A program made the translations under genes and the position numbers. From the NCBI GenBank assembly GCA_946409645.1, contig CAMJXE010000008.1, positions 263 to 64,262 on the forward strand: a stretch of 64,000 nucleotides of DNA, read 5' to 3'. The stretch comes from an uncultured Bacteroidales bacterium. Its GTDB lineage: Bacteria > Bacteroidota > Bacteroidia > Bacteroidales > WCHB1-69. Within the stretch, counting starts at the first letter, position 1, and every line of letters begins with the position of its first letter. The notes beneath the pieces were generated by a model. It was not told where the DNA came from. It ran no database searches and was given only the letters and a program-made list of their open reading frames with translations. Shown piece after piece: positions 1,422 to 40,554 of this stretch.

Positions 1422-2051
1422 TCACATATCGAGTGCTTTTTTCACTCGTTGAACGGTAGAGTTGGATACATCACATAACTTCGCCGTCCGCCTGATACTG
1501 GTTCCTTTCTTAAGTTCCTTCACCACTTTCGGGTACTCTGCCCGCAACTGTTCTGCTGATTTCTTTGTCCCTTTCGGTCTCCCCAGCACGCCTCCTTCCG
1601 CTATGTACTTTGCCCTGCCGCTGTTAAGTCGGAATTTGATATTGTCACGCTCCAATTGCGCCGCTGTTCCCAGTACGGCTATCATAATGTTGCTGTAGGG
1701 GTTCTCGGTCCCGTCCTCTTGGAATAGGTATAAGTTCTCCTTCTGAAAAAACAGATTGAGCCGCACCTCCTTACAATGAAGGACATTTTTTAGGACTTCA
1801 TCGCAATTACGCCCAAGGCGGGATAACTCACTGCATAGAATTATATCTATGGAGTTGGATTCTGCGAAGTCCATACACTCCATAAGTACAGGTCGTTCTG
1901 TGTTTTTCTTCGCTCCACTGATATGCTCCTCGAACACCTTCACCACCTCGTAGTTGTTCTTGGTTGCGAAATCGGTCAGGTCAATCACTTGGCGGTCGGT
2001 GCTTTGTCTGTCGGTCGTGCTGGAAACACGGGAGTATATTACGGCTCTCAT
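1422..2051 (-). CDS. Small serine recombinase (resolvase/invertase family)
   Basis: N-terminal catalytic motif AVIYSRVSSTTDRQSTDRQ, core SELSRLGRN, C-terminal HTH GTSIRRTAKLCDVSNSTVQRV. Start set to ATG 2051 (MRAVIY), 19 nt downstream of a TATATTTG box. Confidence 0.85.
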   Translation of the reverse strand: MRAVIYSRVSSTTDRQSTDRQVIDLTDFATKNNYEVVKVFEEHISGAKKNTERPVLMECMDFAESNSIDIILCSELSRLGRNCDEVLKNVLHCKEVRLNLFFQKENLYLFQEDGTENPYSNIMIAVLGTAAQLERDNIKFRLNSGRAKYIAEGGVLGRPKGTKKSAEQLRAEYPKVVKELKKGTSIRRTAKLCDVSNSTVQRVKKALDM

Positions 2052-2070
2052 ACTCTTAGGTTTTACGCCG

Positions 2071-2078
2071 CAAATATA
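2071..2078 (-). promoter_or_regulatory. Bacteroidetes -7 promoter box (TATATTTG) for the recombinase gene
   Basis: Forward CAAATATA. 19 nt upstream of ATG 2051. Confidence 0.5.
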
Positions 2079-2083
2079 CAAAA

Positions 2084-2091: not shown

Positions 2092-2276
2092 GTATTATAT
2101 TCTAATAAATCAAAGATTTCTTGCGATACGATTTTAAGGGTGGTGCGCTGCGAGTAAGTAGATTTATCTCAATACGGTTTCGGGTGCAGTACACGTCATA
2201 GTAAAAAAATGACCCGCAAGCAGTTCTTATGGTATGCTAACGGGTACTGTTATGGATGGAATGGTGTTCGGTTAAA

Positions 2277-2762
2277 TCACAAATCCAACATCCCGAATTT
2301 TTGGGTATAAGGAATATGAATGTCAGTGAAATCAAACGAGACTTTTTCGTTTTCCTTCAGAATGTCGTACATCCGTTTGCTTGCCGTGTCGGAGGTCAGG
2401 TAATATGAGGCGGATTCACATTGCGCCTGCACGAGAAGTTTGACATCGTTTTGAATGATAATACGGGCATCCACCTCCAATACACCCTTTGATTTCGCCT
2501 CATATAGTATTTTCGCACCTTCACCCGACATGCTGGCGTGATATGCGTTGAAAGGGGAGAGAAGGATGTTTCGGAGCGGAAGGTTTAGTATGCTGTCCTT
2601 CACACAGAATTCGGCAACGGCAATAGTACTCATCCGAATAATATAATCGTGTTCCAAAAAGTATTGGAAATAGCCGAGCGCATTGTTATGCAGGTCATTG
2701 GTTTCGTCAAGCAGGCGAATTACAAACCCCGTGTCACAAAAAACTATTTTGTCATCCTTCAT
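2277..2762 (-). CDS. PIN-domain (VapC-like) ribonuclease
   Basis: Four acidic residues in canonical PIN order: D10 (VFCDTGF), E51 (AVAEF), D106 (IQNDV), D125 (LTSDT). The ATG overlaps the upstream gene by 11 nt. Confidence 0.75.
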   Translation of the reverse strand: MKDDKIVFCDTGFVIRLLDETNDLHNNALGYFQYFLEHDYIIRMSTIAVAEFCVKDSILNLPLRNILLSPFNAYHASMSGEGAKILYEAKSKGVLEVDARIIIQNDVKLLVQAQCESASYYLTSDTASKRMYDILKENEKVSFDFTDIHIPYTQKFGMLDL

Positions 2763-3534
2763 AGTTTCCTCCTCTTATTTCGTACAAGTATTCGTCCACA
2801 TCCACACCCGACCATATCGGCGTAGAAGCCTCAATCTTTTGTTTCAAGTAGTCCATATCAAATTTCGGTTCAAACTCAATCAGTTCCTTCAACTTAAGGG
2901 AGGAACTGTCAATCGCACCCGTGATGATGTTTTGCTTTGCGACAGCCACAACCCCATACTTTCTGTATAATGGGTTGCCTGGATAATTTGCAAGATATTC
3001 CTTGTCGGCATCTATTTTCACCGCACCGTCCTTGGTGTCCAAATGTATGTTGGACTTGTTTTTGCCTCCTGCATCAATGAGTGTGCCGTAATAATAGACC
3101 TCGGCATCCACCCATACGCTTTCAGTGCGTCGAAGTTCTGTCTCGGGAGTGATTCTTAATACCGAATGTTCATTTTCAGAGGAGTGTATGCCTAACGAAA
3201 GGTTGTTTTGGACGGCAAACCGCTGAAAATTCTCAAAAGCAACCGCCGTTTTGGGTTCAAGTGCGTCCAATGGGCTTGCCGTTGACAACATCAGTGTGAG
3301 AATGGAAGCGAATTCAACCGCCTTTTGTTTACTGACGGTGAAAACATTCTTCACAGATCCGTTCTCAACGTGAAAGGTGGCGATAGGGCGGTCTTTTTTC
3401 TTGTCAAGGTCAAGCATAGCGGAAGCATACTCCAACACATCACGCATAAGTGTTATGTCGTAATTGTCGGGAGTGAGCGGCTCTGCACCATACTTGCCGT
3501 CTATGTGTATAATAACCTGCCCTTGGTTTTGCAT
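2752..3534 (-). CDS. Hypothetical 261-aa protein, upstream partner of the PIN gene (possible atypical antitoxin or sensor)
   Basis: Long uninterrupted ORF. The listed start at 3576 is a TTG inside the promoter. The first ATG (3534, MQNQGQV) lies 22 nt downstream of a TATTTTTG box. Its stop overlaps the PIN start. I recognise no family motif. Confidence 0.6.
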   Translation of the reverse strand: MQNQGQVIIHIDGKYGAEPLTPDNYDITLMRDVLEYASAMLDLDKKKDRPIATFHVENGSVKNVFTVSKQKAVEFASILTLMLSTASPLDALEPKTAVAFENFQRFAVQNNLSLGIHSSENEHSVLRITPETELRRTESVWVDAEVYYYGTLIDAGGKNKSNIHLDTKDGAVKIDADKEYLANYPGNPLYRKYGVVAVAKQNIITGAIDSSSLKLKELIEFEPKFDMDYLKQKIEASTPIWSGVDVDEYLYEIRGGNYEG

Positions 3535-3556
3535 TCCATATTGTTTTTTCAGAATG

Positions 3557-3564
3557 CAAAAATA
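3557..3564 (-). promoter_or_regulatory. -7 box (TATTTTTG) for the 261-aa/PIN operon
   Basis: Forward CAAAAATA. 22 nt upstream of ATG 3534. A second box, CAAATATA, lies at 3574-3581. Confidence 0.55.
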
Positions 3565-3809
3565 CAACTTTTCCAAATATAAGAATGGGCTGCTATGATT
3601 TTTTTTCTGCTGTCAACCTGAAGGTTTGCATTTTAGGGAGCAATCATCAGCAGTAATCGTCGATAGAGTCGCCACCTGTCCATTCAAGTCCCTGCTTCAA
3701 TGTATATTGTTTCCTTGCACCTTGCTCTGTGAAGAAGGAGCCGAGGTTTGTGTGCAAGAATCCATCCGCTTTGGTAATGTTTGTCTCAATTCTGTCTCAG
3801 TTTTAACGC

Positions 3810-3847
3810 AAAAATCAGCAAACTACGTCCGTAATTTGCTGATTTTT
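3810..3847 (-). terminator. Hairpin terminator downstream of the tRNA-Leu/tRNA-Gly operon
   Basis: 13-bp stem AAAAATCAGCAAA / TTTGCTGATTTTT with a 12-nt loop. A/T runs on both sides, so it could act bidirectionally. Confidence 0.6.
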
Positions 3848-3866
3848 ATTGTTTTGTAAGACTTTG

Positions 3867-3939
3867 AGCGGAAAACGAGACTCGAACTCGCGACCCCAAC
3901 CTTGGCAAGGTTGTGCTCTACCAACTGAGCTACTTCCGC
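3867..3939 (-). tRNA. tRNA-Gly (anticodon GCC)
   Basis: The reverse complement GCGGAAGTAGCTCAGTTGGTAGAGCACAACCTTGCCAAGGTTGGGGTCGCGAGTTCGAGTCTCGTTTTCCGCT folds by hand into a cloverleaf. Anticodon loop is TTGCCAA and T-loop is TTCGAGT. Confidence 0.9.
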
Positions 3940-3945
3940 TTATCG

Positions 3946-4029
3946 TACCACGGGTGGGACTTGAACCCACACGCCCGCAATGGGCAAGGGATTTTAAGTC
4001 CCTCGTGTCTACCATTCCACCACCATGGC
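3946..4029 (-). tRNA. tRNA-Leu (anticodon TAA), long variable arm
   Basis: Reverse complement GCCATGGTGGTGGAATGGTAGACACGAGGGACTTAAAATCCCTTGCCCATTGCGGGCGTGTGGGTTCAAGTCCCACCCGTGGTA. Anticodon loop is CTTAAAA, T arm is GTGGG-TTCAAGT-CCCAC. Length 84 nt. Confidence 0.85.
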
Positions 4030-4070
4030 AGCACATTTTCCAATGAACGGGTCATCCGAAAATGACGGTG

Positions 4071-4078
4071 CAAAAATA
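4071..4078 (-). promoter_or_regulatory. -7 box (TATTTTTG) for the tRNA-Leu/tRNA-Gly operon
   Basis: Forward GTGCAAAAATACAC. 41 nt upstream of the tRNA-Leu 5' end. Confidence 0.55.
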
Positions 4079-4122
4079 CACTTTTTTCTTTATCCCCGTC
4101 ACTCTTGTTGAAAAAAAAATAT

Positions 4123-4894: not shown

Positions 4895-4989
4895 CAAAAT
4901 GGTGTAGAGATGTTATCGCGTCTCTCCGTCACATTAAGGCATCTCTACATCATATTATATGTCTGAATTAGATTTTCATATTCAGACCG

Positions 4990-4997
4990 CAAAAATA
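4990..4997 (-). promoter_or_regulatory. Candidate -7 box for the methyltransferase gene (long leader)
   Basis: Forward CGCAAAAATAAT. 147 nt upstream of ATG 4842. This is the only consensus box in the divergent spacer on this strand. Confidence 0.3.
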
Positions 4998-5106
4998 ATA
5001 TTTTTTCAGCCATCTTCTTCCTATGGCTCTACATTCCACAATCTCCCCTATTCTCTTTTTCCTTTTTTTCTATTGGCTATTGTCATTTGCCTATTCCAAA
5101 AAAATG

Positions 5107-40481: not shown

Positions 40482-40554
<73 letters not shown>

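Follow-up and report, generated by a model that had tools for sequence, protein, structure and literature searches.

The window analysed here is a stretch of 64,000 nucleotides (nt) from an uncultured Bacteroidales bacterium (assembly GCA_946409645.1, contig CAMJXE010000008.1, positions 263 to 64,262), and the subject of this study is a pair of overlapping genes near its beginning, which encode a PIN-domain protein and, in front of it, a larger partner protein. A first-pass annotation, made from the letters alone, had put the pair forward as an atypical toxin–antitoxin or defence candidate, and both open reading frames (ORFs) were found on the minus strand where it had placed them:

2752..3534, minus strand: partner gene, 260 amino acids (aa) from the ATG at 3534; putative antitoxin or sensor
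2277..2762, minus strand: PIN-domain (VapC-like) nuclease gene, 161 aa; putative toxin, with D10, E51, D106 and D125
2752..2762, minus strand: partner stop and PIN start overlapping by 11 nt, ATGAAGGATGA; translational-coupling geometry

The partner had been given a length of 261 aa, which counting from the ATG at 3534 corrects to 260 aa. A TTG-extended ORF of 274 aa was rejected, because the family alignments start at the ATG and the conserved promoter box falls inside the extension. The 11-nt overlap is present as described. The annotation further supported coupling of the two genes by a GGAGG said to lie 8 nt before the PIN ATG; the GGAGG is there, at 5 nt measured from its end to the ATG. 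It is, however, forced by the AGA-GGA-GGA codons of the conserved residues R254-G255-G256 of the partner and is therefore not independent evidence of a ribosome-binding site, and Shine-Dalgarno pairing is in any case little used by Bacteroidota.

The 161-aa protein is, by its sequence and its predicted structure, a VapC-like PIN domain with a complete acidic active site, and nuclease activity is predicted for it. The four acidic residues were read correctly in the first pass (D10 in VFCDTGF, E51 in AVAEF, D106 in IQNDV and D125 in LTSDT). The window protein itself gave no direct match in Pfam (none at E ≤ 1), NCBIfam, PADLOC, PHROGs or PDB sequences. Its family comprises at least 95 clusters, and 14 of 29 sampled members matched PF01850 (E ≤ 0.1; best 1.5e-6), while one homologue carries a precomputed PF01850 match. 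An AF2 model built from the family alignment (predicted local distance difference test score, pLDDT, 92.9; predicted template modelling score 0.87) showed a three-layer α/β/α fold with a central parallel sheet, like solved VapC structures. When this model was searched against the PDB with Foldseek, the top 20 matches (E ≤ 1e-3) were all VapC/PIN proteins, with template modelling (TM) scores of 0.51–0.73 and E values down to 5e-6. The best neighbours were Rickettsia VapC2, Pyrococcus PIN proteins, Shigella VapC and Mycobacterium tuberculosis VapC20, VapC15, VapC11 and VapC21, and the top entries include 3zvk, 1y82, 3tnd and 5wzf. The 135 unique relatives from the fetched loci all have E51, D106 and D125, and 131 of them have D10 as well; the motifs DT.F.IRLL, STI.(V/I)AE, ND.K..AQA and YLTSD are classical PIN motifs, which bears out the PIN assignment.

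The two genes form an obligate pair in both directions. We scanned one genome per species with a partner profile, which matched in at least 464 genomes, most of them from Bacteroidota (Bacteroidales, Flavobacteriales, Cytophagales, Sphingobacteriales and Saprospiraceae), and analysed the 80 best loci. In 78 of these 80, the partner is followed directly by an ORF of the PIN family. Conversely, metagenome contigs scanned with the PIN profile showed the partner directly 5' in every locus with room for it, one remnant excepted. Conservation as a pair, which the annotation had set beforehand as a test of its own reading, was thus observed from the partner side and from the PIN side. The translational coupling proposed from the window also holds across the family, the ORFs overlapping by 1, 4, 8, 11 or 14 nt in 131 of 132 loci. 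The distance matrices of partner and PIN protein correlate at r = 0.945, compared with a maximum of 0.065 in 500 permutations, and mean divergence is equal for the two proteins (0.465 vs 0.467), indicating that the genes travel and evolve together without partner swapping. Measured against the closest relatives (88–92% nt identity), the ratio of nonsynonymous to synonymous substitution rates (dN/dS) is 0.035–0.057 for both genes, reflecting strong purifying selection. Clustering of all neighbouring ORFs of the 80 loci yielded only these two families and no third conserved gene.

Decay of the pair is asymmetric. Of the 78 species genomes with an intact partner, 11 have lost the PIN gene or carry it frameshifted or truncated, and a broken partner beside an intact PIN gene was seen once (L053); in the PIN-selected set there is at most one broken partner (L109) among ~70 scorable loci. 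The contrast is significant (Fisher p = 0.005; p = 2e-4 in a binomial test of the 11:1 split weighted for gene length), in a comparison of two differently sampled sets whose loci are not all independent and include related ones. A further case, L182, belongs to the window's own clade: its partner is intact and 95% identical, and its PIN gene has a frameshift at codon ~8 and breaks off after residue ~98. The flanks of L182 are housekeeping genes (HlyIII, pdxJ, fabD and dnaE). Orphan partners were found in L079, L177 and L182, and no intact PIN gene with room for a partner on its 5' side was clearly an orphan. Such a pattern is to be expected if the PIN protein without its partner were deleterious and the partner without the PIN protein harmless.

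The partner is an uncharacterised protein that, according to its structural model, contains an OB fold. Its sequence matched nothing in Pfam, NCBIfam, PADLOC, PHROGs or PDB sequences, 29 relatives led to no Pfam, NCBIfam or PADLOC family either, family profiles searched against the PDB gave no match, and an exact look-up of the window protein returned no record. Homologues are labelled only 'hypothetical protein' in their sources. They are numerous, amounting to 332 clusters at 90% identity and at least 966 clusters at 50% identity (E ≤ 1e-3), nearly all of 250–265 aa. As the annotation had noted, neither the window protein nor the 29 relatives contain a ribbon-helix-helix (RHH), AbrB or helix-turn-helix (HTH) domain recognisable by Pfam or NCBIfam. 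In the AF2 model (pLDDT 82.7), residues ~1–130 form an α/β region of β-hairpins and helices, and residues ~141–220 follow the order β1-β2-β3-α-β4-β5, the classical OB fold topology (by DSSP, strands 141–155, 161–167 and 170–176, helix 178–182, and strands 192–202 and 208–220). Two C-terminal helices (227–237 and 246–253) complete the chain, and the C-terminal 40 residues have the lowest pLDDT, 59–68.

Foldseek matches of the partner model in the PDB are nearly all OB domains at the top of the list, with E values of ~1e-3 and TM scores, normalised to small targets, of 0.55–0.63. They comprise the ExoVII large subunit, the anticodon-binding domain of LysRS, RPA14/32, IF1, Rim1, Ten1, YgiW, RecO and LEF-3. 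By sequence the partner belongs to no described OB family in Pfam, NCBIfam or PDB sequences. About 230 aa of the partner had been left unplaced in the first pass, with the suggestion of a sensor or second effector domain; the modelled OB fold lies within them and gives that idea substance. In BFVD, two uncharacterised phage proteins match the partner over its full length (E 1.5e-10 and 5e-8), and the partner structure resembles a phage protein annotated as DUF6575 (TM 0.28–0.36). A DUF6575 domain has been reported in one Escherichia coli defence system (PMC9519451). The DUF6575 Pfam model is not matched by the partner sequence, so the link is structural only and a weak lead.

We extended an alignment of the Bacteroidota branch and a Burkholderiales branch of the family to remote members sharing as little as 21% identity. 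Residues still conserved at this level lie mostly in the OB core (E145, G150, G156, G157, N162, H164, G170, N187 and Y190), and G59, S60 and Q104 likewise persist. The C-terminus carries a conserved W-x4-R-G motif, of which R254 is kept in 30 of 31 sequences. Here the annotation had seen an acidic toxin-binding tail; the conserved feature of this segment is W-x4-R-G, not acidity.

Judged from its sequence, the pair has its own Bacteroidetes promoter, and a hairpin follows the PIN gene:

3557..3564, minus strand: Bacteroidetes-type -7 promoter box TATTTTTG (TAnnTTTG), ~23 nt 5' of the partner ATG
3574-3581: second TAnnTTTG match, TATATTTG
2203..2246, minus strand: terminator-like hairpin (2213-2246), then a U7 run (2203-2209), 3' of the PIN stop

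The box TATTTTTG lies inside a block of 45 nt that does not vary among the four closest relatives, whose sequences further 5' are unrelated. Among 106 loci (L001–L166), TAnnTTTG occurs within 120 nt 5' of the partner ATG in 98, where shuffled sequences lead one to expect ~9, and in 78 of the 106 the box begins 10–19 nt before the ATG, which suggests leaderless or near-leaderless transcripts for many module copies. The hairpin with its U7 run has a folding energy of -13.1 kcal/mol (z -2.27) and marks the end of the conserved module. Homology detected by blastn spans 2196-3779 between the window and L001 and 2268-3573 between the window and L002, ending at the module borders, and the flanks are unrelated between loci even at 88–90% nt identity. 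A 28-nt motif containing GCAAAAATA (TAnnTTTG, other strand) occurs three times, at 3548-3575, 4062-4089 and 4981-5008, marking promoters for the module, for the tRNA operon and for a third unit.

Phages, plasmids and chromosomes exchange the pair, which has a patchy, mobile distribution. The window retains a trace of such movement in the form of one further feature:

3648..3779, minus strand: remnant of an HNH homing-endonuclease gene, its last 43 codons (blastn and translation against L001)

These 130 nt correspond to the end of an HNH gene (HNH_3/phrog_59) that stands intact 5' of the module in L001 (L001:3231-4268), and the remnant points to a mobile origin of the module, from phage. L001, the closest relative, is phage-like: besides the HNH gene it carries a phrog_22485 protein (E 9e-162) and a DNA helicase. 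Within a rumen phage, a copy of 65% identity (P0137, 61 contigs) has genes for an endolysin amidase and a tape-measure protein among its neighbours, and all six IMG/VR matches carry the pair next to phage genes. The pair stands between a tail fibre gene and an integrase (L163), adjoins an ImmA/Xre-type regulator (L165), or lies among DNA methyltransferase, RecE-like exonuclease and primase-helicase genes (L162). GenBank isolate phages gave no match. The plasmid search gave a single match, plasmid pA of Bordetella bronchiseptica (L176; NZ_CP132331.1 34497-35762), a 39-kb plasmid full of small hypothetical genes; its pair is full length (hidden Markov model E values 1e-29 and 1e-30), both genes are annotated as hypothetical, and it belongs to a Burkholderiales branch with Achromobacter, Kerstersia, Paraburkholderia and Variovorax. 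On chromosomes, some copies have as neighbours WYL regulators, restriction–modification (RM) systems, reverse transcriptase, SbcCD, AAA_15/21, cas7b, GmrSD, BrxH or AriA. At L003:8417-9469, L004:6566-7618, L177 and L179, copies adjoin type I-B cas7 or lie in islands with WYL, RM methyltransferase, reverse transcriptase, SbcCD and AAA_15/21 genes. The mobile context proposed in the first pass therefore finds support in the HNH remnant, the phage-like closest relative and the copies in prophages, a plasmid and defence islands.

The annotation had also adduced a by-eye AT-richer patch, which measurement did not bear out: module GC content is 0.446, that of the whole window 0.461, and 38.5% of segments of the module's size reach the same value or less; the module contrasts only with GC-rich genes at 4.1–4.8 kb. 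The neighbours it had named, a serine recombinase on the 3' side and tRNA genes on the 5' side, are real:

1422..2081, minus strand: small serine recombinase (resolvase/invertase type), PF00239 E 6e-33; 3' neighbour
3866..4029, minus strand: tRNA-Gly(GCC) and tRNA-Leu(TAA), by ARAGORN and Rfam; 5' neighbours, separate transcription unit
3810-3847: near-perfect hairpin of 18 nt, directly after tRNA-Gly, ending the tRNA unit

The module thus sits with the tRNA operon's hairpin on one side and the recombinase on the other. Transcription of the tRNA-Leu/tRNA-Gly operon probably terminates at this hairpin, which makes it likely that the module is transcribed apart from the tRNAs. L002 and L012 likewise have a tRNA immediately 5' of the module, and the tRNA pair is likely an insertion landmark. 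A tRNA at 40482-40554 (minus strand) was considered as a duplicated attachment site and rejected, being a different tRNA despite an Rfam score equal to that of tRNA-Gly at 3867-3939. With the Mpi master-invertase model the serine recombinase reached 106 bits, where the cutoff is 272. Its translation probably starts at an ATG ten codons inside the listed TTG ORF (MRAVIYSRVSS), and no target inverted repeats were identified for it. A 35-nt inverted repeat (1719-1753 / 3542-3576), with one arm inside the recombinase ORF and the other on the module promoter, was considered as an invertase site and judged to be probably a chance match, being 77% complementary and AT-rich. No recombinase recurs beside the pair in the 80 loci, and the serine recombinase is a neighbour in the window only, outside the conserved module.

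These results support the first-pass reading in its main points; toxicity, neutralisation and a part in defence are what we infer from them. With somewhat better than even confidence, we propose that the pair is a mobile type II-like toxin–antitoxin module in which the PIN protein is toxic and the partner neutralises it, its role most likely being addiction and/or abortive infection or superinfection exclusion. The module is carried by temperate phages, plasmids and genomic islands, and the partner is made first, from the same short transcript as the PIN protein, given their own promoter and the overlapping stop and start. Free PIN protein would act as a metal-dependent ribonuclease cleaving tRNA or rRNA, and the partner would hold it inactive. 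The flexible C-terminal helices of the partner, ending in W-x4-R-G, would bind the PIN protein and place Arg254 in its acidic active site, as in FitA/VapB. In FitA (Arg68) and in VapB tails, a C-terminal arginine reportedly occupies the toxin's acidic pocket (Mattison et al. 2006, as cited in PMC10440598). The tail is a candidate neutraliser because the C-terminus, although the part of the model with the lowest pLDDT, still carries R254, one of the few residues conserved to 21% identity. The OB and N-terminal part most likely binds single-stranded nucleic acid or a phage product, by which it would either tune toxin release or target the complex, and PIN release could be coupled to infection or to loss of the element.

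Several observations weigh against this model. A well-folded partner of 260 aa is atypical for a labile type II antitoxin, and it lacks any known antitoxin DNA-binding domain. Palindromic operators are not in excess in the 80 nt 5' of the partner in 106 loci (best inverted-repeat score 4.99 vs 4.72 in shuffles), so that classical DNA-binding autoregulation is not supported. The OB assignment comes from a model, and its Foldseek E values are weak (~1e-3). Inter-protein covariation, computed as mutual information with average product correction on 128 pairs (effective number of sequences ~51, underpowered), was discarded as a guide to the interface: its top pairs spread over all partner regions and did not single out the C-terminus. 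Neither the window proteins nor the 29 relatives searched with each of them had a meaningful match in PADLOC-DB v2.0.0; the top scores (E ~0.004–0.01) fell on unrelated models in only 1–4 members. Many copies lie among housekeeping genes such as asd, whereby a defence role is not established, and the uneven sampling behind the decay contrast counts here as well.

One alternative keeps the toxin–inhibitor core of this model and differs only in role: the pair would be a dedicated anti-phage abortive-infection system, in which the OB and α/β part of the partner senses a phage trigger (ssDNA intermediates, phage single-stranded DNA-binding protein (SSB) or another protein) and the PIN protein, then released, cleaves host or phage RNA. 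The copies in defence islands (WYL, RM, reverse transcriptase, SbcCD, AAA_15/21, type I-B cas7, GmrSD, BrxH and AriA) speak for it, as do prophage positions typical of defence morons (between tail fibre and integrase in L163, next to ImmA/Xre in L165) and, as a weak lead, the structural likeness of the partner to the DUF6575 phage protein. However, PADLOC recorded no match, most immediate neighbours are not defence genes, and the DUF6575 link is structural only, with low TM scores and an unmatched Pfam model; we regard a dedicated system of this kind as possible but rather unlikely. The boldest reading would be a new class of sensor-antitoxins, whose OB and N-terminal domains sense phage single-stranded nucleic acid or protein, upon which the W-x4-R-G plug leaves the PIN active site and RNA cleavage and abortive infection follow. 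We advance this class tentatively and hold it to be unlikely, at about one chance in a handful or slightly better.

The main rival, and a less probable one, is a constitutive two-subunit nuclease, in which the OB partner is an SSB-like or RNA-binding adaptor whose tail brings ssDNA, tRNA or other RNA to the PIN protein, and which would serve the nucleic-acid metabolism of a phage or element (replication, recombination or RNA processing). The Foldseek matches of the partner do include SSB-type OB domains (RPA, Rim1, baculovirus LEF-3, ExoVII) and tRNA-binding ones (LysRS, TiaS), the L001 and L162 pairs lie among DNA-metabolism genes (HNH, helicase, RecE-like exonuclease, primase), operator-like palindromes are absent, and phage SSBs recruit partners through C-terminal tails. 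On the other hand, the module is found by itself, under its own promoter, in dozens of unrelated places on chromosomes that contain no other phage or replication genes, and its PIN fold is like VapC toxins rather than FEN or RNase H-type replication nucleases. Moreover, the loss of PIN genes (11 vs 1) would be unexpected for equal subunits of one enzyme, and partners occur as orphans (L079, L177, L182) whereas no clear orphan intact PIN gene with room upstream does. We therefore consider a two-subunit nuclease improbable. That the ORFs arose by chance, or are pseudogenes in decay, and lack a function in this genome is next to impossible and already refuted by conservation: neither window protein has a direct curated-family match and the adjoining HNH remnant shows that the surrounding element is partly decayed, but both ORFs are full length against hundreds of homologues, all catalytic and family-invariant residues are present, dN/dS stays at 0.035–0.057, and promoter box and terminator are intact.

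The pair makes a large uncharacterised family the obligate partner of a divergent VapC-like PIN protein. What lifts it above routine is the size and breadth of the family, its carriage by phages in gut and rumen Bacteroidota, and a predicted OB fold where a DNA-binding domain is usual. Defence and addiction systems of gut and rumen Bacteroidota are poorly charted, and catalogues centred on E. coli under-sample them. If the sensor-antitoxin idea were true, the pair, which is widespread in Bacteroidota (gut and rumen Prevotellaceae among them) and present also in Burkholderiales, would be an uncatalogued prophage-borne defence system; if the OB domain were a ligand sensor, the pair would offer a tractable two-protein model of how a nucleic-acid signal activates a nuclease. 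Neither an OB-fold partner of PIN toxins nor this pair was found described in Pfam, NCBIfam, PADLOC or the searched literature.

Among known systems, phage and organellar OB proteins of the SSB type (T7 gp2.5, RPA, Rim1, LEF-3), whose C-terminal tails recruit other proteins, share with the partner model the β1-3/α/β4-5 topology and a flexible C-terminal tail. However, the similarity is limited to Foldseek E values of ~1e-3 and 10–17% identity, the partner has an extra N-terminal region of 130 aa and, unlike SSBs, it is strictly coupled to a PIN gene. PIN nucleases with OB-type or RNA-binding modules are also known, namely PIN-TRAM proteins, Dis3/Rrp44 with its CSD/S1 domains, and Nob1 with Pno1. 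These resemble the present pair in joining a PIN site to a β-barrel nucleic-acid-binding module that could select the substrate; no sequence relationship to them was detected, and they are fusions or housekeeping RNA-processing factors rather than mobile two-gene cassettes.

No prokaryotic toxin family is larger than PIN/VapC, and the antitoxins known for it are small proteins that bind DNA. The pair resembles VapBC and FitAB in the VapC-like PIN fold with four acidic residues, in a partner gene that lies 5' and overlaps the toxin start, in its conservation as a co-oriented pair and in its patchy, mobile distribution. The conserved arginine near the partner C-terminus may be a further parallel, by analogy with the active-site-blocking arginine that FitA and VapB place there. 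It departs from them in the size of the partner, which at 260 aa is about three times that of VapB, in the lack of RHH, AbrB, Phd or HTH domains in favour of a modelled OB fold and an unassigned α/β region, and in the missing palindromic operator signal; the PIN protein, for its part, is ~25–30 aa longer than a typical VapC and falls below the Pfam PIN thresholds. A further precedent is the NetFlax network, in which PIN toxins combine with many unrelated antitoxin domains (PanA, ImmA/IrrE-like D25, RHH_6; PMC10440598). Like those pairs, the present one joins a PIN protein to an unrelated larger partner domain and has links to phage defence and mobile elements (PMC10440598). Unlike them, it has an OB-fold partner, of which the main text of PMC10440598 makes no mention, and the partner matches none of the NetFlax antitoxin domains in Pfam or PADLOC. 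Since PIN toxins are already known with many antitoxin domains, the pair would represent a new type of partner within an established category, not a new category.

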